A stretch of DNA of 32,000 nucleotides from Candidatus Thorarchaeota archaeon (GTDB taxonomy: Archaea > Asgardarchaeota > Heimdallarchaeia > Hodarchaeales > Hodarchaeaceae): assembly GCA_048882505.1 (NCBI GenBank), contig JBHLRO010000002.1, positions 240,001-272,000 on the forward strand, given 5' to 3'. The notes under the pieces are model-generated. The model made no database searches. It was not told the DNA's origin and saw only the letters and a program-made list of their open reading frames with translations. A program made the translations under genes and the position numbers. Shown here one piece after another: positions 1,821-8,484 of the stretch (the stretch's first letter is position 1; each line of letters starts with the position of its first letter).

Positions 1821-3224
1821 TTGAACACGATTATTGACGATAACGCCCTATTAGGGTATTTTCGACCTCGTGGAAAAATAGTTTGCATCGGAGATATCCC
1901 CTCTGCTATGGATATCATCCGAGAGTACTTGGATGTAAGAGAAGAGGCACGCTTGCCGCTATTACACCTAACCTCTCATCCTGTCTCGGATGACTTATGT
2001 GATCAAATCATTGTTTTCAATTCTGAAACCGTTTTGTCTCAAGTACATAATCTTTTAAACGCCTATTTCCTACTTTTTATTTTTGATTCCTCCGATACAT
2101 ATACACTTCCAATTCTGATGGGAGTTCTTGACTCAATTCGAAATAACGGGGCGATCCCTCTTCTGATCGATATCGGGACGGGTTTCGAAAAAGAAGGTCA
2201 AAAATTAATTCCAGGAAGCTATTTCCACCTGGATTCCAAAGAAGAGCAATCCCGTTGGGAATTTCTTGTACTCTTAGATTCTATTATCTCAGTTTTTCAA
2301 TCTCCAAAGGGACTAGGTGTAACTTTTTCTGATCTCATTCAGATTTTTGGAAAAACAGAACAGTTATTCTACGGATTTTCATCATCTCCTGCTCTTGAAA
2401 CTTGCACGATGGATGCAATAGATAAAATTGGACAAATGTTGGCGATCGGTCATCCTGAAGACCTTAAAAGCCTCGAAATTCTCTTCGTCACAGTCCATTC
2501 GCAGGATCCTTTAAGTTTGAAAGAAATGAATAGAATTGTTGAGCGATTCTCAGCTGCATTTGGAAAAGATCTCCAAAATCATTTTTCGAATGTGGTAGGA
2601 TCTTGTTTTCCCGAATATACAATGGCTCTCATGCTGACAGATAACCATCCGATCGAAACAGTATTGCCACCCCTTCTCCAAGAGATAGATGCCTTGATAA
2701 CCTCGTTGGATACTTCGCAAGGCGCTAATGTTGTCGATACTAGCGATTCCGATATTGAAAATTCTCCTGAGGAAGATGTACGATATAAAGTACTTGGACA
2801 AATTTTTACGGAGTCCGAAGTTTATATCTTTGAAGATGGAGGGTTACCTCTTTTTGCAAGCCATCGTCCAGCTGGACAAGAAGTTTGTTTGTACACGGGG
2901 TTGTTTTCGGCAATTCAATCAATGAGTTCCGATCTAATTGGACATACTCCAGATCATTTGACCGCAGGCGACAAACAATGTGTTTTTACATCCCAAATCG
3001 GCCCTGATAACGCACAACTTAGAGGAGTAGCCATATACGCAGAAGGTAACGAACGTCATGCGCGTAAAGATCTGGAATTTACGATGAACATAGTTAAGAC
3101 TCTCCTAGGACAAGGAGAACCTGCATATGCCGTTAATGATCTGGTTCAACAATTTTTGATCCAAGAATTCCAAAAAGGATCAATTAACACCCTATTACAG
3201 AGAGGAAACTACCACGCAAGTTGA
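1821..3224 (+). CDS. Degenerate FtsZ/tubulin-fold protein (aa ~18-275) fused to a C-terminal longin-like domain (aa ~330-455)
   Basis: FtsZ-like motifs in the correct order: KIVCIG, GFEKEGQK (cf. PFxxEGxxR), PKGLGVTFSDL (cf. T7 loop PGLINLDFADV), LFYGFSSS, LFVTVHSQDPLSLKEMNRIV (cf. LIxITGxxDLTLxE), terminal TMALMLTD (cf. RVTVIATG). The GGGTGTG loop is absent. The C-terminal VYIFEDGGLPLF...LYTGLFSAIQSMSSDL matches the Asgard longin-like pattern. TTG start. Confidence 0.7.
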   Translation: MNTIIDDNALLGYFRPRGKIVCIGDIPSAMDIIREYLDVREEARLPLLHLTSHPVSDDLCDQIIVFNSETVLSQVHNLLNAYFLLFIFDSSDTYTLPILMGVLDSIRNNGAIPLLIDIGTGFEKEGQKLIPGSYFHLDSKEEQSRWEFLVLLDSIISVFQSPKGLGVTFSDLIQIFGKTEQLFYGFSSSPALETCTMDAIDKIGQMLAIGHPEDLKSLEILFVTVHSQDPLSLKEMNRIVERFSAAFGKDLQNHFSNVVGSCFPEYTMALMLTDNHPIETVLPPLLQEIDALITSLDTSQGANVVDTSDSDIENSPEEDVRYKVLGQIFTESEVYIFEDGGLPLFASHRPAGQEVCLYTGLFSAIQSMSSDLIGHTPDHLTAGDKQCVFTSQIGPDNAQLRGVAIYAEGNERHARKDLEFTMNIVKTLLGQGEPAYAVNDLVQQFLIQEFQKGSINTLLQRGNYHAS

Positions 3225-3229
3225 ATTCT

Positions 3230-3862
3230 TCAGCGTGATTTTGGTAAAGAATCATAAGATTGGCGATAGATCTTCTCAACGTGTGTAAACTCTTCAATTA
3301 GCTCGACGATCTTGTTTGGTTCGATATAGATTTCAGAAGACCATAAAACTAAGTAAGCCGTGATGTGAGCCGGCTGTAAGGCTATCATGTCCTGGATTTC
3401 AGTAATGATTGCTTGACGAAGAGATAATTCCGTTTCGTACATATCTACAATCTTTTGGATAGTCCGCTCAGCCTGCTCAATAACCTCTAGGTCATGTTCT
3501 CCTCCCACAGGGTTTTCGCCTAAAACCTTTTTCTTGGCAAGCTCCGAAAAATCAAGCCGGAATTGTGTTTCGATTTTCCGCATCTCTTTTAATACGTCAG
3601 AAAATTGAGAGAGATAGCGATTCAAATCAGCGAGGTTTTTATTGATGATTTCGGCCAGTCGATATGCAAGTCGATCTGGTATATCCTCAAATTTCTTTAA
3701 CAATGATTCAGAAAAGACTTCGGGTCTCGCTTGAACCATATTCAGTCGTGAAAGCACTGTCAAGATCGAATTGACCGTCCGTAATGAGTGGTTTTGGATT
3801 TGGTTCCACTTTTTTTGACTTAATTGAAGCCTTTTTTTGACAATTCGAACCGAAGAGTGCAC
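3230..3862 (-). CDS. All-helical hypothetical protein, possible C1orf109/AIRIM (CA109-like) family
   Basis: 210-aa ORF with heptad helices, convergent with the previous gene (5-nt gap). The pattern W..IQ...L....SI...L.RL..VQ ... MYETELSLRQAII ... W resembles plant and animal C1orf109-like proteins as I recall them. Confidence 0.6.
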   Translation of the reverse strand: MHSSVRIVKKRLQLSQKKWNQIQNHSLRTVNSILTVLSRLNMVQARPEVFSESLLKKFEDIPDRLAYRLAEIINKNLADLNRYLSQFSDVLKEMRKIETQFRLDFSELAKKKVLGENPVGGEHDLEVIEQAERTIQKIVDMYETELSLRQAIITEIQDMIALQPAHITAYLVLWSSEIYIEPNKIVELIEEFTHVEKIYRQSYDSLPKSR

Positions 3863-4088: not shown

Positions 4089-6281
4089 GTGTCTGCAACG
4101 ATGAAAAACCTTATTTCTTCACCCATTGGCCGTTTTTCACCATTTTTTTCAGGAAATCGCTCTTCTAAACCAGTTCTAACGCTTTTGTGGATAGTTTTGA
4201 TTCTCCTTATCACCCAAATAGACGGGGTTCCTATCCATGCAGAAAATAAATCGAACGGGTTTCCCAATCAAATCATCTTGACTCACGGTGTTCCCCAAAT
4301 CGGAACGTTTTCGAATACAACAATGTCTCATAACTGGAAAATTGAAAATGTTGATACAGGTCAGGAAGTTTATCTTTCTGTAACTCCTCATCCTCCATAT
4401 TTGAAATCTGAATTCAGTGTAGGACTTTATAGACCCGAAGGACAGCTATATACTTCCCTTCTGTCTGAAATTCCTAATCCTTCCTCCTATCTAGTATTCT
4501 TCACAGCCCCTAGTGCAGGGGACTGGATATTCCAAATTAACGATACGCGGATCCTCCGAGACACAAATGCTACCTATGAGGTAATAGTGTCCATACCCAC
4601 ATCAGGATATAATGAGAATACAGCGGTTGAGGTTAGGCAGACCATTAAAACAAAAAATTTTACCACTCCCCATGAAATTCATTATTGGAAGGTTGACTTA
4701 GAGGAAAATCAGAATGGAACCTTGTTCTTGAAGGAAGTTGATTTGAACGTCCTTTTTGAAGCTTGGCTATTCATTTTTCCAAGTAGTAGCCCTTTTAATC
4801 CGATTCTCTCTGAAACTCAAATCCAAGGATCACATAACTTCTCCTGGAATGCTGGGTCTCAGGATACCTACATCATACGACTCACACACAATCCCCAAGA
4901 AATTACTCCTATTGGGCAGTATAACATCTCTTTTGAGGCTGAGCAGGATCTTTATAGCTTTCAGACTGCGGGAGAGTTGCAGGATAACCATACTACTATT
5001 GTAAGAATCACACAGGGATTTCCACGAAAAATTTACTACTTCTCGTTTCGAGTAAACCATAGCAGAGCGGAAATATTCATTCGGATATTTGAAGACAATC
5101 GTACAACATCGAAGGTTCTCGACTTCGCCAAAATCGAAATATATGACGAAGGGGGGCAAAATAGAATTATTAGTGTGGATGAAGTAGACCAGGATCGAGA
5201 TGGCGAAATAAATATTACAGTACTTATACTCGAGATCGGTAGGTATTATGTTGTTGTCATCCCCGAATCCAATAATGTGGGAGTTTTTAAGATTCATTTG
5301 GAAATTCGGCCGCCTCAACCTTTCCTCTGGGATATATCTGGACTTTTTTTGATAGTCAGTACTCTAATAGGCCTTCCTGGTTACTTGATCTATCTGGATA
5401 CGAAAGGAAAATGGTTTCGGGTCAGTCAATGGGTCGTTCCAGCAGACCGAAAGGAAACCTATAGACTGCTAAAGGATAGTTTTAGAGGAATATTTAATCT
5501 AGAAGAGGTTCCTGAAGATTCTATCCTAATCCGAGTCGCGAGTATTCCTGTGTCTACCTATGCTCTAATTAGTTGTGTTGAATCAACTGAAGAGGAGACC
5601 TTGGTATTTTCCAAACGGTTACGCAGAAAGCCCGAATGGATAATCTATTTTTTTATAGGCGCAATCCTTTATGCAAGTCTAAATATTCTAAGTTATCTGT
5701 TTCTCTTCCAGCATTTTCTCCCCTTCTATATAGACGGAATTACAAATCTTCTGCTTGTCCTGATTCTCCCTCTGACCGTTCTGGGAATTCCTGTACTATT
5801 CGTGAATGTGTCTCCAATTTTTGCATATAATCAGCTCAATAACCGCCTCTCTTATGTTATGCAAAACTACCAAAGGGCTTCCGATTCCGGAATAGAACCT
5901 GTTCAGCAATTAGATCTCGATCAAATAATCAAGAATATCAATTATGTCAGGGTGTTATGGAATCAAGCTAAGCGAGCTTTCAAGGAAAAGAACTACGAGC
6001 TCTTTGTAATAAAAGCCGACACCGCTGTCAAAAACCTCCTCTTTGTGCGCTACCAACAGATCGTCTCGCTGAGTCTTCTATCTAAGCCAGATTTTACAAT
6101 GCAGGTTGAAGAACTCAGAACGCATGGGTATGATCTACCTAGTAGCAAAAAGATTATACATTACCGAAATATAAGGAACCGTATTGTGCATTCTTCTGTG
6201 ACACTTGGAGAAAAAGAGTCGATTGATTGCTACGCGTACTACAGCACATTTATTACGCGACTTGGATTGCGACCAACATAG
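4089..6281 (+). CDS. Membrane protein: signal peptide, ~3 extracellular PPC/beta-sandwich repeats, 3 TM helices, C-terminal HEPN-like domain
   Basis: Hydrophobic N-terminal segment (VLTLLWIVLILLI), beta-rich repeats (VGLYRPEG, AGDWIFQI, YIIRL, GRYYVVV), TM segments at aa ~415-437, ~518-540 and ~552-580. The C-terminal helical domain (AKRAFKEKNYELFVIKADTAVKNLL...RNIRNRIVHS...) carries an R-x4-H motif at nt 6174-6191. Confidence 0.7.
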   Translation: MSATMKNLISSPIGRFSPFFSGNRSSKPVLTLLWIVLILLITQIDGVPIHAENKSNGFPNQIILTHGVPQIGTFSNTTMSHNWKIENVDTGQEVYLSVTPHPPYLKSEFSVGLYRPEGQLYTSLLSEIPNPSSYLVFFTAPSAGDWIFQINDTRILRDTNATYEVIVSIPTSGYNENTAVEVRQTIKTKNFTTPHEIHYWKVDLEENQNGTLFLKEVDLNVLFEAWLFIFPSSSPFNPILSETQIQGSHNFSWNAGSQDTYIIRLTHNPQEITPIGQYNISFEAEQDLYSFQTAGELQDNHTTIVRITQGFPRKIYYFSFRVNHSRAEIFIRIFEDNRTTSKVLDFAKIEIYDEGGQNRIISVDEVDQDRDGEINITVLILEIGRYYVVVIPESNNVGVFKIHLEIRPPQPFLWDISGLFLIVSTLIGLPGYLIYLDTKGKWFRVSQWVVPADRKETYRLLKDSFRGIFNLEEVPEDSILIRVASIPVSTYALISCVESTEEETLVFSKRLRRKPEWIIYFFIGAILYASLNILSYLFLFQHFLPFYIDGITNLLLVLILPLTVLGIPVLFVNVSPIFAYNQLNNRLSYVMQNYQRASDSGIEPVQQLDLDQIIKNINYVRVLWNQAKRAFKEKNYELFVIKADTAVKNLLFVRYQQIVSLSLLSKPDFTMQVEELRTHGYDLPSSKKIIHYRNIRNRIVHSSVTLGEKESIDCYAYYSTFITRLGLRPT

Positions 6282-6408
6282 AAGTCAATTTTTAATCCAT
6301 AGGCTCTCGAGTTCTAATTCCTTATGATTGCACTAAAGGACAACTTTATTTAAAAGAATGAGCATTTTACCGTTAAAGAAACCATTGAAGCTCTAGGATG
6401 GTTATCTA

Positions 6409-6693
6409 GTGTCGGAGACGGTTTTAGCTAATTTACCTAGATCGGCCAAAGAAGTCTATAGTATTATCATTAACGAGGGTCCTTTGAGCTCAAAAGAAAT
6501 CGTCAAAAAAGTCTCGTGTTCAACTCGGTCGGTCAGGTATGCTTTAAAATTGCTGCTTGACCAGGAATATGTCAGAAAATATCCCTGTTTAAATGATATG
6601 AGACAGACGCTCTATTCTGTCACTCCCCACCTCCCGAGGGCTACGATAGAGCGTTTGAAGTGGGAATTAATGATTATGACACGGGTTAAGTAA
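6409..6693 (+). CDS. Winged helix-turn-helix transcriptional regulator (archaeal MarR-like)
   Basis: LPRSAKEVY..I.NEGPLSSKEIV......RSVRYALKLL.....V......DMRQTLY matches the common archaeal small wHTH family. GTG start. Confidence 0.85.
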   Translation: MSETVLANLPRSAKEVYSIIINEGPLSSKEIVKKVSCSTRSVRYALKLLLDQEYVRKYPCLNDMRQTLYSVTPHLPRATIERLKWELMIMTRVK

Positions 6694-6741: not shown

Positions 6742-8010
6742 TCAACGACCGCCAATCTTCAGAGAACATTTGGCTAAACGTTTATTCTGGACGTACCCCG
6801 CTGCTTTAACGATGTGTCCATCGAAATGGGTGAGCTCCAGTGAGAACTGAATTTTTAATTCATAGGAAAAGACTTCTCCTTGCCCTAAGACACCAATCGT
6901 CTTCTGCCCTGTACCTAAATCCAGTTCAACTCCATCTGGGATTTCCATAATAATTTTCAGATCCTGTAAACTAGTTTTGCCTATATTTTCCGCACTGATA
7001 GTAATCATATATTCATGATCCTCTTCTATGGTTTCAGATACCATAGAGAGCTGTAATGCAGGGGGTGCTTCTTTGATAGAGGCAGTTACGGTTTTTGATA
7101 TCACTGAATATTCCTGGGTCGTATTATGGTCAGCGGGAATTCGATAAACGACTGTTAACGGGCCTATAATCCATTCACCTGGTAAATTAGGAATCAATGA
7201 GTAATGAACAGTTTGACTTGTGCCTTCTGTTAAGGTAATGGGTAGTTGTGGTAGGATTGACGACACTATTCTTCCGTGTGAGCCGATTCTCAAGCTGATG
7301 GATGCGATCGCTAGTTCAGCATATACCGTGAAAGATCCAGAAACCGAAAAAGGTGAGCCTTTCTCAAGAGATTTTGAGCTATCATGTGTAAGGGATGTTA
7401 CCTGACACAGGGAAAGGCGTTGCATAAAATGCTCTGCTTCCTGTTTCACAGGTAAAAACTCCCTAGGCAAATCTATATCAGGCAAGGGTTTTTTTTGAAC
7501 ATATGTATCTTGTGCATGAATCAACTCCCATGTGGTGTCGATAGCTTCTTTATATTCATCATTTACCTCATGATCTAGCTTTTCATAAAGCGGTATTAGC
7601 TTGTCAAGGTCATTCTCCCCCAAAAATATCAAGAATTTCATAAACAAAAACTTGGAAACCGGAATGATGGGCTTAGGGCTAGATTTGGCCACCGCTATGG
7701 CGCGGTTAACGTCTGTCATAACCAATCTAGATGGTTTTGTATTCTTATTGGATAATTTTAGAAGAATTAATTGATAATATAGTTCTGTGGCCTTCTCAAA
7801 CAAGAAAGCTTTTTCTGCACAAAGAGCAGCGTTGTCCAGTGCCATTATTTGCATATCAACGTTACTTAACTTTTTGAAGGCCTTTTCAAACGATTTGAGG
7901 GCTGATTTGAAATTTCGCTGGTCAAAGGCTTTTTGTCCTTTTTTCAGCTCAACACGTGGATCAACACGAAATATGCGACGAATAAGGTACATCGGATCAT
8001 CTTCCGTCAA
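6742..8010 (-). CDS. TPR/alpha-solenoid N-terminus plus two C-terminal Ig-like beta-sandwich domains; probably cytosolic
   Basis: TPR pattern (KGQKAFDQRNFKSALKSFEKA; NAALCAEKAFLFEKATELY), then beta-sandwich motifs (YSLIPNLPGEWIIGPLTVVY; ITISAENIGKTSLQDLKIIMEIPDGV; IGVLGQGE). No signal peptide. ATG at 7992 is an alternative start. Confidence 0.65.
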   Translation of the reverse strand: MTEDDPMYLIRRIFRVDPRVELKKGQKAFDQRNFKSALKSFEKAFKKLSNVDMQIMALDNAALCAEKAFLFEKATELYYQLILLKLSNKNTKPSRLVMTDVNRAIAVAKSSPKPIIPVSKFLFMKFLIFLGENDLDKLIPLYEKLDHEVNDEYKEAIDTTWELIHAQDTYVQKKPLPDIDLPREFLPVKQEAEHFMQRLSLCQVTSLTHDSSKSLEKGSPFSVSGSFTVYAELAIASISLRIGSHGRIVSSILPQLPITLTEGTSQTVHYSLIPNLPGEWIIGPLTVVYRIPADHNTTQEYSVISKTVTASIKEAPPALQLSMVSETIEEDHEYMITISAENIGKTSLQDLKIIMEIPDGVELDLGTGQKTIGVLGQGEVFSYELKIQFSLELTHFDGHIVKAAGYVQNKRLAKCSLKIGGR

Positions 8011-8061: not shown

Positions 8062-8484
8062 TCATCTTCGAACAGATCTCTCCAATACCATCCTGAGCTC
8101 CTTCTCGCGCTCTTTAAGCGTTTCAATCACTTTTTTCTTTAATTCTCGTGGATTTTTTTCATGTTTTCCAATTTCCCACACTCTTCGTGATAGCTCGTCA
8201 TCTCCCAGAACGTAATTTATCCACAATGCGATGTCAGACCTCACGACCGGACCGTTCAACTGCTCATCAAACAATCCCGACATTGTTTCCCGGAAAACGT
8301 GAAACTGTAAAATTGTAGGTGGGATATCGTGTAGTGTAGAGATTAGCTCAGAGAGATTTGATACTGTAGCAAGTACGCTCCCTTTACTTCCACGGATTTT
8401 GAACATCAAGGAGGTGGGGCATTTTTTGAAGGCATCTTGGGCGATGGTCTGGGCCAATTCACCTGTACTTGACACTAGAATCAC
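8062..8484 (-). CDS. DUF5752-like small helical protein
   Basis: SNLSELISTLHDIPPTILQFH....SDIALWINYVLGDDELSRRV resembles the DUF5752 / GH57 C-terminal module (A.SL.EL...L.......H...DF..W....LGD.ELA). Confidence 0.55.
   Translation of the reverse strand: MILVSSTGELAQTIAQDAFKKCPTSLMFKIRGSKGSVLATVSNLSELISTLHDIPPTILQFHVFRETMSGLFDEQLNGPVVRSDIALWINYVLGDDELSRRVWEIGKHEKNPRELKKKVIETLKEREKELRMVLERSVRR

Follow-up and report, generated by a model that had tools for sequence, protein, structure and literature searches.

An open reading frame (ORF) at positions 4089-6281, on the forward strand, of a 32,000-nucleotide stretch of DNA from Candidatus Thorarchaeota archaeon (order Hodarchaeales, family Hodarchaeaceae; assembly GCA_048882505.1, contig JBHLRO010000002.1, positions 240,001 to 272,000), the whole of which is referred to here as the window, encodes a predicted single-chain membrane protein in which a large all-beta ectodomain is joined via a three-helix membrane core to a C-terminal domain that is a member of the HEPN superfamily and stands outside every curated family. 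On the basis of its sequence and modelled structure the domain is predicted to be a catalytically competent ribonuclease (RNase). The favoured reading of the protein, termed the receptor below, is that of a stimulus-gated membrane RNase of core physiology, to which we would give about an even chance of being correct. A sequence-only reading of the window had proposed a transmembrane receptor in which ligand-induced dimerisation could activate an RNase on the other side of the membrane, whether for defence, abortive infection or signalling, by analogy with IRE1; the analysis reported here follows up that proposal.

The C-terminal HEPN domain and its predicted dimer

The HEPN domain occupies residues 610-730 (5916..6278, forward strand, as for all receptor features described here), within which the AlphaFold2 model of the full-length protein has five helices between residues 610 and 724. 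Helices at 610-632, 636-659, 686-702 and 708-724 form a four-helix bundle with an insert (669-678) between core helices 2 and 3, which is the fold of the HEPN superfamily, and are followed by an invariant RLGLR tail. A separate AlphaFold2 model of residues 585-730, with a predicted local distance difference test score (pLDDT) of 84.8, was compared with structures in the PDB using Foldseek and VIA. In an exhaustive VIA comparison with 48,161 representative chains the first 24 matches were all HEPN superfamily members (Z 7.4-11.8), the best being AF_0298 (2hsb; Z 11.8, root-mean-square deviation (rmsd) 2.8 Å over 117 residues) and the second best the HEPN domain of sacsin (Z 10.3). Csm6 and the HEPN toxins associated with nucleotidyltransferases (MNT) aligned with Z-scores of 9-10 and AbiV with a Z-score of 8.8, the AbiA HEPN domain and HepS also being among the closest structural neighbours. 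The top Foldseek matches were nearly all HEPN proteins; since their E-values all exceeded 0.09, assignment of the fold rests on the VIA Z-scores together with the uniform HEPN identity of the matches.

An HEPN-like C-terminal fold and an RxxxxH motif had both been noted from the sequence, and both were borne out. The motif, R696-N697-R-I-V-H701 (6174..6191), is located at the end of core helix 3 (686-702) within the longer stretch R693-N-I-R696-N-R-I-V-H701, and R696, N697, V700 and H701 are invariant in an alignment of 38 homologues with overall identities down to 23%. Residue D644 (6018..6020) in helix 2 (636-659) is invariant in the same alignment, so that the domain has both the Rx4-6H motif, where core helix 3 ends, and an acidic helix-2 residue of the sort seen close to the motif in many catalytic HEPN families. 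This arrangement is that described for HEPN proteins by Anantharaman, Makarova, Burroughs, Koonin and Aravind (2013; PMC3710099), with the motif at the end of helix 3, the insert between helices 2 and 3, and an acidic helix-2 position that agrees with D644. The domain also contains seven invariant or near-invariant arginines, which from their conservation would fit a role in RNA binding. The HEPN domain is the best-conserved part of the receptor, and its whole surface is extremely conserved.

The relationship of the domain to established HEPN families was examined by scanning 26 members of the receptor family against Pfam. HEPN_RiboL-PSP (PF18735) matched 21 of the 26 below threshold (best E 8e-4), with a best score of 18.4 bits that did not reach the gathering cut-off of 28.4, and DUF4145 (PF13643) matched 10, also below threshold (best E 0.022); a few members matched other HEPN models, no Pfam HEPN model being matched above its gathering threshold, and the window's own protein had no Pfam HEPN match at E-values up to 10. 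Since the only Pfam matches are sub-threshold ones of this kind, the domain is considered an unclassified HEPN family that lies nearest the DUF4145/RiboL-PSP branch. Searches of all PDB sequences with phmmer and with a 26-sequence HEPN profile returned chance matches only (desaturases, E 0.04 or worse). The KEN domain of IRE1 and RNase L (PF06479), Las1 and C6orf70/DUF4209 were absent from the Pfam scan of the 26 members at E-values up to 10, and were not among the best 50 VIA matches listed, a result that is still compatible with distant kinship. A specific link to eukaryotic HEPN families was dropped as a consequence of there being no Pfam or listed VIA match, which is not proof of absence.

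Structure prediction with two copies of the HEPN domain gave an ipSAE score of 0.66 (median of three runs) versus 0.19 for the best control, the runs agreeing in at least 72% of contacts with a partner pLDDT of at least 81. In a benchmark of the procedure, 20 of 30 proteins whose solved structures are pairs of one chain attained this mark, as did 1 of 23 with single-chain structures; part of the score obtained for the receptor may reflect memorised structures, since solved HEPN dimers exist in the PDB. The confident interface comprises the pole of the domain that bears the N and C termini (residues 610-617, Q657-I658, 678-682 and 723-728), including an H/R-G-F/Y-D-L loop (678-682) and the invariant T-R-L-G-L-R tail (723-728), whereas R696 and H701 lie at that end of helix 3 which is opposite the predicted dimer pole. 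The suggestion that the domain forms a homodimer, made in the sequence-only reading together with a check of whether the R696/H701 motifs meet at the interface, was therefore supported in its first part, but the confident interface is the RLGLR pole and the two catalytic residues are not named in it. In the predicted arrangement, then, the catalytic motifs seem on balance not to meet, and because R696 and H701 are absent from the confident contacts, the dimer switch proposed below is inferred. The HEPN RNase RnlA is known to alternate between a canonical active dimer and an inactive one (PMC8266594), and on that precedent an inactive/active dimer switch would be a reasonable model for the receptor.

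Topology, ectodomain and membrane core

The receptor ORF comprises 730 codons open from GTG at 4089. The ATG at 4101 is the likelier start codon, because an identical database protein has 726 aa and alignments of homologues begin at the corresponding Met. The N-terminus that follows (4101..4241) contains a hydrophobic segment at residues 24-51 as judged by hydropathy, with a core at approximately 29-47, in agreement with the signal peptide noted in the sequence-only reading; it is unconserved in the alignment and of low pLDDT in the model, and the hydrophobic helix is probably a signal peptide or signal anchor. The full-length AlphaFold2 model (mean pLDDT 84.6, from 38 homologues), taken together with hydropathy, gives the order of elements as the N-terminal helix, an all-beta region (59-408), a first transmembrane helix (TM1), a beta-alpha-beta4 unit, TM2, a 10-residue loop, a helix spanning 550-598 and the C-terminal domain. 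The whole protein matched nothing in Pfam (E up to 1), NCBIfam or PADLOC (E up to 10).

The predicted topology, with the ectodomain outside and both the alpha/beta domain and the HEPN domain inside, is supported by two distributions along the sequence. N-x-S/T sequons occur at a frequency of 3.10 per 100 aa in the ectodomain compared with 1.23 expected by shuffling, and at 0.20 per 100 aa in the HEPN domain compared with 0.75 expected (38 homologues in both cases). Lys and Arg together make up a fraction of 0.15-0.17 of both parts that are predicted to be cytoplasmic, against 0.03 of the loop at 540-549 and 0.07 of the ectodomain. Since the sequon distribution and the positive-inside charge pattern agree, the ectodomain is placed outside the cell and the HEPN domain inside, which is the arrangement that had been deduced previously by counting membrane crossings. 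TM1, the alpha/beta loop domain and TM2-TM3 of the earlier description are likewise present, at 416-438, 446-511, 514-539 and 550-575, respectively, and none of the three outcomes that it had named as speaking against it (a C-terminal domain without an HEPN fold, an unconserved motif, or a topology placing the domain outside the cell) was encountered.

The ectodomain is an all-beta region of approximately 350 aa which, in the AlphaFold2 model and by comparison with VIA, consists of three sandwiches. The first (D1, residues 59-170; 4263..4598) is modelled with a pLDDT of approximately 90, is rich in sequons and matches PliG-like and PPC-like sandwiches in VIA (Z 10.0, rmsd 2.8, 97 aa). The second (D2, residues 184-286; 4638..4946) is a GOLD-like jelly roll, aligned by VIA with the GOLD domains of p24 (Z 11.6, rmsd 2.2), SPF/Sec14L (Z 11.3) and TMED1 (Z 11.1), a similarity that on the model would amount to fold resemblance only. 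The third (D3, residues 287-408, or 285-408 as matched in VIA; 4947..5312) is PPC-like and resembles the collagen-binding domains of collagenases, having the s3 jelly-roll fold of ColG and ColH; VIA alignments were obtained with ColH s3 (3jqw; Z 14.3, rmsd 2.1, 110 aa, 20% identity) and ColG s3b (2o8o; Z 13.9, rmsd 1.8, 19-20% identity), and ColG s3a-s3b was the top Foldseek match of the full-length model (E 1.6e-10), amongst whose other matches CUB proteins were prominent. The likeness of D3 to PPC domains is at the level of the fold only, because the Pfam PPC model (PF04151) gave no match. Tandem PPC/CUB-like beta-sandwiches had been read from the sequence, and the VIA and Foldseek matches are in accord with this. 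The dsRNA transporter SIDT1/SID-1 also ranked highly in Foldseek, but with TM-scores of 0.14-0.17 and an rmsd of more than 30 Å; in VIA the match was confined to two beta-sandwiches (Z ~10, rmsd 5.5), and it was set aside as a generic ectodomain resemblance.

The membrane core begins with TM1 (residues 416-438; 5334..5402), recognised by hydropathy, as a model helix and in the alignment, which would run from outside to inside and is followed directly by a conserved basic K-G-K-W-x-R. The cytoplasmic beta-alpha-beta4 part of a KA1-like domain (residues 444-513; 5418..5627), identified with VIA in the AlphaFold2 model, comes next, and then the TM2-TM3 hairpin (residues 514-539 and 550-575; 5628..5813), assigned by hydropathy and the model. 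The hairpin has conserved residues at N532 (in TM2), P545, P561 and N573, and its short outside loop contains a conserved L544-P545. The helix at 550-598 is continuous in the model, its first half being TM3, and its cytoplasmic continuation (residues 576-599; 5814..5885) provides both the last KA1-like helix and a linker to the HEPN domain.

When residues 444-513 and 576-599 of the predicted model were compared with known structures using VIA, matches were obtained with the KA1 domain of Chk1 (Z 12.4, rmsd 2.5 Å, 91 of 93 residues), the C-terminal domain of AMPK alpha (Z 12.3) and the KA1 domain of Kcc4 (Z 10.6), all spanning model residues 444..599 and skipping the TM2-TM3 hairpin. The beta-alpha-beta4-alpha fold of KA1 is therefore present, on a single predicted model, and the resemblance is to a KA1 fold that is split by a membrane hairpin inserted ahead of its last helix, which is a structural oddity; as modelled, the insertion would hold the domain flat on the inner leaflet. 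A Pfam scan gave no KA1 (PF02149) sequence match, identities in the structural alignments are 5-10%, and the protein has no kinase. A separate Atlas structure search with residues 438-516 returned CIPK-type kinases among miscellaneous matches, and the scores of an Atlas language-model-feature search with the same residues were all below 0.8. A sequon-like N-V-S tripeptide at the predicted cytoplasmic end of TM3 (residues 573-575; 5805-5813), kept in 32 of the 38 homologues, probably acts as a polar structural element within the membrane core and not as a glycosylation site.

Distribution and gene neighbourhood

A word-indexed search recovered approximately 60 receptor clusters at 90% identity, the named ones all from metagenome-assembled genomes of Heimdallarchaeota/Hodarchaeales. 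An exhaustive HMMER search with residues 440-730 over 1.84 billion representatives found 31 proteins only, with no eukaryotic homologue among them. When whole genomes were searched with the HEPN profile, the receptor was found in 20 of 21 genomes from the family to which the window belongs (its own genome excluded) and in both genomes of the second family of the order, that is, in 22 of 23 Hodarchaeales genomes, each with one full-length ORF of ~720-800 aa; the window's own genome has one copy. Conversely, 59 genomes representing five other families in the same class gave no match, and in a sample of 201 genomes from the phylum only one further family did so, with short, distant, HEPN-only relatives.

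A few distant relatives from outside the receptor family, known as metagenomic proteins, carry the HEPN domain in other settings. In P0088 this HEPN subtype lies behind leucine-rich repeats (LRR) and in P0089 behind a single TM helix (DUF4145, E 1.9e-4), the motif being intact in both; in P0091, from Lokiarchaeota, it lies behind a zinc ribbon and several TM helices and the His is replaced, and in P0085 the motif His is lost. The gene contexts of the HEPN-only relatives P0089 and P0085 were uninformative, and P0086 (1190 aa, eight short stretches) was discarded as a repeat-driven false match.

The receptor gene stands in a conserved order of DnaJ, radical-SAM-like, TGT/PUA, a gene for 467-470 aa, a divergent CA109-like gene, the receptor, a convergent gene for ~412-422 aa and DUF5752, which holds even at loci where the receptors are only 45-51% identical (L001 and L002), although L001 has two shorter called genes in place of the convergent gene. 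In the second family of the order and in a branch 28% identical to the receptor the neighbours are altogether different. No defence or mobile-element genes were seen in the examined ORF list of the 32-kb window, no PADLOC defence family was matched by the whole protein or its HEPN part at E-values up to 10, and no MNT neighbour of the kind that accompanies HEPN-MNT pairs was present in the window or at loci L001-L004, L006 and L007. Order-wide, single-copy and syntenic, the gene shows neither the PADLOC match nor the patchy distribution expected of a defence system. Since it is single-copy, order-wide and syntenic, we consider that it belongs to core signalling or stress physiology as opposed to being a mobile immune gene.

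Directly downstream, a gene for a 94-aa MarR-type winged helix-turn-helix (wHTH) protein (6409..6693, forward strand; Pfam MarR, E 8.5e-6) follows on the same strand, as described in the sequence-only reading, but it is not a conserved partner. It adjoins the receptor in 13 of 22 Hodarchaeales genomes, is missing in at least six, where the convergent gene directly abuts the receptor, and is also absent in the deeper branches; the possibility that it is an obligate partner or antitoxin was rejected because of the 13 of 22 adjacency. Given this adjacency and the differing neighbours in the deep branches, the receptor is regarded as a stand-alone gene, beside which the wHTH gene is no more than a lineage-specific neighbour. 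Between the receptor stop codon and the wHTH start codon lie 127 nt that contain (6340-6400) a TATA-like TTTATTTAAAA and, immediately ahead of the start codon, a short inverted repeat (CTAG-N9-CTAG), which from the sequence suggests a separate promoter/operator for the wHTH gene.

With regard to the remaining neighbours in the window, the CA109-like gene (3230-3862, reverse strand) encodes a 210-aa helical protein that matches the Pfam family of C1orf109-like ribosome-biogenesis proteins (E 2.4e-9, above the family cut-off); it is divergent from the receptor in the window, L001 and L002, and is two genes away in the distant L003. The 467-aa ORF (1821-3224, forward strand), which has no Pfam or NCBIfam match, is conserved upstream in L001 and L002. 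The convergent gene (6742-8010, reverse strand; 422 aa) has weak TPR and BatD-like matches only, and the 140-aa DUF5752 protein (8062-8484, reverse strand; Pfam E 3.7e-10) is conserved at the corresponding position of both L001 and L002. Elsewhere, the 28%-identical homologue P0060 is followed directly, in L003 and L004, by a gene for a 975-979 aa protein without Pfam matches, and an Arf/Ras/Roc-type small GTPase gene lies ~4 kb downstream of it (L003, 12350-12994; L004, 7399-8043; both forward strand). Two genes from the receptor homologue in the second family, L006 encodes a protein of 246 aa that combines a double zinc ribbon with a RING finger (5559-6299, reverse strand; zf-RING_2, E 1.7e-5).

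Proposed gating, alternative readings and known systems

In the mechanism that we favour, a receptor-like membrane glycoprotein would place a predicted catalytic HEPN RNase at the cytoplasmic face of the membrane. The resting state would be a constitutive dimer, held together by the RLGLR pole, in which the two catalytic sites are kept apart. A change in the ectodomain, whether brought about by a ligand, surface contact or envelope stress, might then be relayed via TM1, the TM2-TM3 hairpin and the KA1-like domain so as to re-pack or cluster the HEPN domains, and the Rx4H faces would pair. The paired domains could cut RNA close to the membrane, such as tRNA, rRNA or the mRNAs carried by translocating ribosomes. 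The build of the protein supports gating of this kind: the ectodomain is fast-evolving and the tail constrained (mean identity to P0001 of 37% and 65%, respectively), the TM3 helix runs on into the cytoplasm, and the juxtamembrane domain is KA1-like.

Four observations weigh against this interpretation. The confident dimer contacts leave out R696 and H701, although residues left unnamed there are uncertain, which is not proof of non-contact. The linker helix at ~576-609 is the least conserved segment of the protein, at 28% identity, which is odd for a signalling helix. A fast-evolving ectodomain would fit an arms race equally well. Finally, Z-scores of 8-12 for a helical domain are within the range of chance matches between bundle arrangements and, since unrelated helical bundles can reach such values, identification of the HEPN domain depends on motif and fold taken jointly.

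One alternative is an outside-in antiviral sensor acting by abortive infection, with an ectodomain that is a decoy or real receptor for viruses of archaea or for other invaders, and with indiscriminate RNA cleavage by the HEPN domain, once the ectodomain is engaged, leading to dormancy or death. In prokaryotes the majority of HEPN families operate in conflict systems (PMC3710099), HEPN plus TM modules borne on phage-inducible chromosomal islands (PICI) defend bacteria (PMC12948488), and the nearest structures to the domain include AbiV, the AbiA HEPN domain, HepS and Csm6; moreover, the ectodomain is diverging much faster than the tail and the distant LRR-HEPN relatives have a typical sensor-effector layout. 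However, the gene is single-copy in 22 of 23 Hodarchaeales genomes, in fixed synteny among housekeeping and eukaryote-like genes, has no conserved antitoxin-like partner, and neither a PADLOC match at E-values up to 10 nor mobile or defence genes in the examined ORF list of the window were found. The defence or abortive-infection role entertained in the sequence-only reading is disfavoured by this near-universal, syntenic, single-copy distribution and by the lack of a PADLOC match, and antiviral sensing seems unlikely.

The same core, vertical and single-copy distribution would also suit an ungated enzyme. In bacteria, membrane-bound RNase E and RNase Y handle RNA processing and decay, and the receptor could feasibly be a constitutive membrane-tethered RNase for housekeeping RNA processing or decay, with an ectodomain that has a separate role in surface structure or adhesion. 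The extreme conservation of the HEPN surface points to cellular partners or substrates that are fixed, the predicted dimer has a constitutive look and the linker is poorly conserved, all of which would be accommodated. An unregulated HEPN RNase, on the other hand, is usually toxic, as is established for the HEPN toxins (PMC3710099); a glycosylated ectodomain of 350 aa, a three-helix membrane core in which polar residues are conserved and a KA1-like domain far exceed the needs of an anchor; and confinement to one order means that it is not a general archaeal decay enzyme. Constitutive activity is accordingly rated as quite improbable. That the HEPN domain is a non-catalytic nucleotide-, RNA- or protein-binding module, of the kind found in sacsin or in nucleotidyltransferase-associated HEPN proteins, and the receptor an adhesion or scaffold protein, is very doubtful, for although many HEPN domains are not nucleases (PMC3710099), sacsin provides the second-best structural match (Z 10.3), and P0085 and P0091 are without the His, the conservation of R696, N697, H701 and D644 unchanged in 38 sequences, in a protein that elsewhere falls to 23% identity, is the pattern of a working active site.

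The concept of membrane HEPN signalling, as embodied in the gated RNase favoured here, is not new. Three groups of predicted bacterial TM-HEPN proteins (DUF4145-type WP-TM-HEPN, alpha-domain-TM-HEPN and HEPN-2TM-Zn-ribbon) were described in 2013 together with the hypothesis that outside stimuli change HEPN conformation and RNA stability, 'similar to Ire1' (PMC3710099). Like the receptor, these have a cytoplasmic HEPN domain with an intact Rx4-6H motif tethered to membrane helices, and they share the DUF4145/RiboL-PSP branch in which the receptor's only Pfam signals fall. They carry one or two TM helices and lack a large ectodomain, however, whereas the receptor is archaeal, is restricted to one order and has three glycosylated sandwiches, three TM helices and the KA1-like domain. 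The PICI HEPN-TM anti-phage module (PMC12948488) similarly combines an HEPN domain with a transmembrane segment, but is bacterial, small and carried on a mobile island, where the receptor is chromosomal, syntenic, order-wide and without a PADLOC match. AF_0298-type and MNT-associated HEPN proteins (2hsb, 5yep, 7bxo and 7ae8) have the same four-helix core with insert and Rx4H motif, with structural matches over 110-117 residues (2hsb, Z 11.8; toxins, Z 9.2-9.8); they are soluble proteins of 120-150 aa, usually with a nucleotidyltransferase antitoxin, unlike the receptor loci, which are without MNT. The receptor differs from these precedents, then, in its three-domain glycosylated ectodomain, three-helix core, split KA1-like domain and standing as a core gene throughout the order.

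Acidic lipids are ligands of KA1 domains, which autoinhibit the enzymes that carry them, and IRE1-type RNases need back-to-back or face-to-face oligomerisation. The KA1 and AMPK-alpha C-terminal domains of Chk1, MARK, Kcc4, AMPK and CIPK share with the receptor a beta-alpha-beta4-alpha fold that is adjacent to the membrane; the receptor's version differs from them in having no kinase, in its 5-10% identity and in a last helix that is parted from the remainder by the TM hairpin. IRE1 and RNase L are HEPN-superfamily RNases, and IRE1 shares the layout of a single-chain sensor across the membrane from the RNase. Both have a kinase or pseudokinase before the RNase, whereas the receptor has no Pkinase match and has the KA1-like fold and TM hairpin instead; unlike IRE1 it is three-pass with a KA1-like domain, and its HEPN helix order is canonical while that of KEN is circularly permuted (PMC3710099). 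The comparison with IRE1 drawn in the sequence-only reading thus stands as an analogy, but the receptor has no kinase and no KEN-specific signal in sequence or fold, and the idea was published for bacteria in 2013 (PMC3710099). That the receptor is a functional counterpart of IRE1, in the sense of a surface or secretory-stress receptor that cleaves membrane-bound RNAs at specific sites, with the KA1-like domain in the regulatory role of the kinase, is by analogy conceivable and has little likelihood in our estimation.

HEPN RNases are known mainly as soluble toxins and as CRISPR/Abi effectors, and to our knowledge the only well-understood transmembrane receptor that drives an HEPN-type RNase is eukaryotic IRE1. 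In the literature, nothing was found on the receptor family, on HEPN domains in Hodarchaeales or Asgard archaea or on archaeal KA1-like domains, nor was an experimental study found of a prokaryotic membrane HEPN protein with a real sensor ectodomain. Hodarchaeales, which were reportedly placed closest to eukaryotes in the 2023 work of Eme et al., would with the HEPN-tailed receptor possess a testable archaeal counterpart to IRE1 for membrane-to-RNA signalling, by analogy and not by ancestry. The family provides a compact, strongly conserved single-gene example in which the catalytic residues and the dimer interface are open to mutation. If the RNase is gated from outside, the receptor would represent a new archaeal route by which the membrane signals directly to RNA, as well as an independent model for the silencing of HEPN nucleases; and were the IRE1-counterpart reading to prove true, membrane-to-RNA signalling would be older than the endomembrane system of eukaryotes, having existed in the archaeal lineage that is their sister, irrespective of any descent of KEN from this family.

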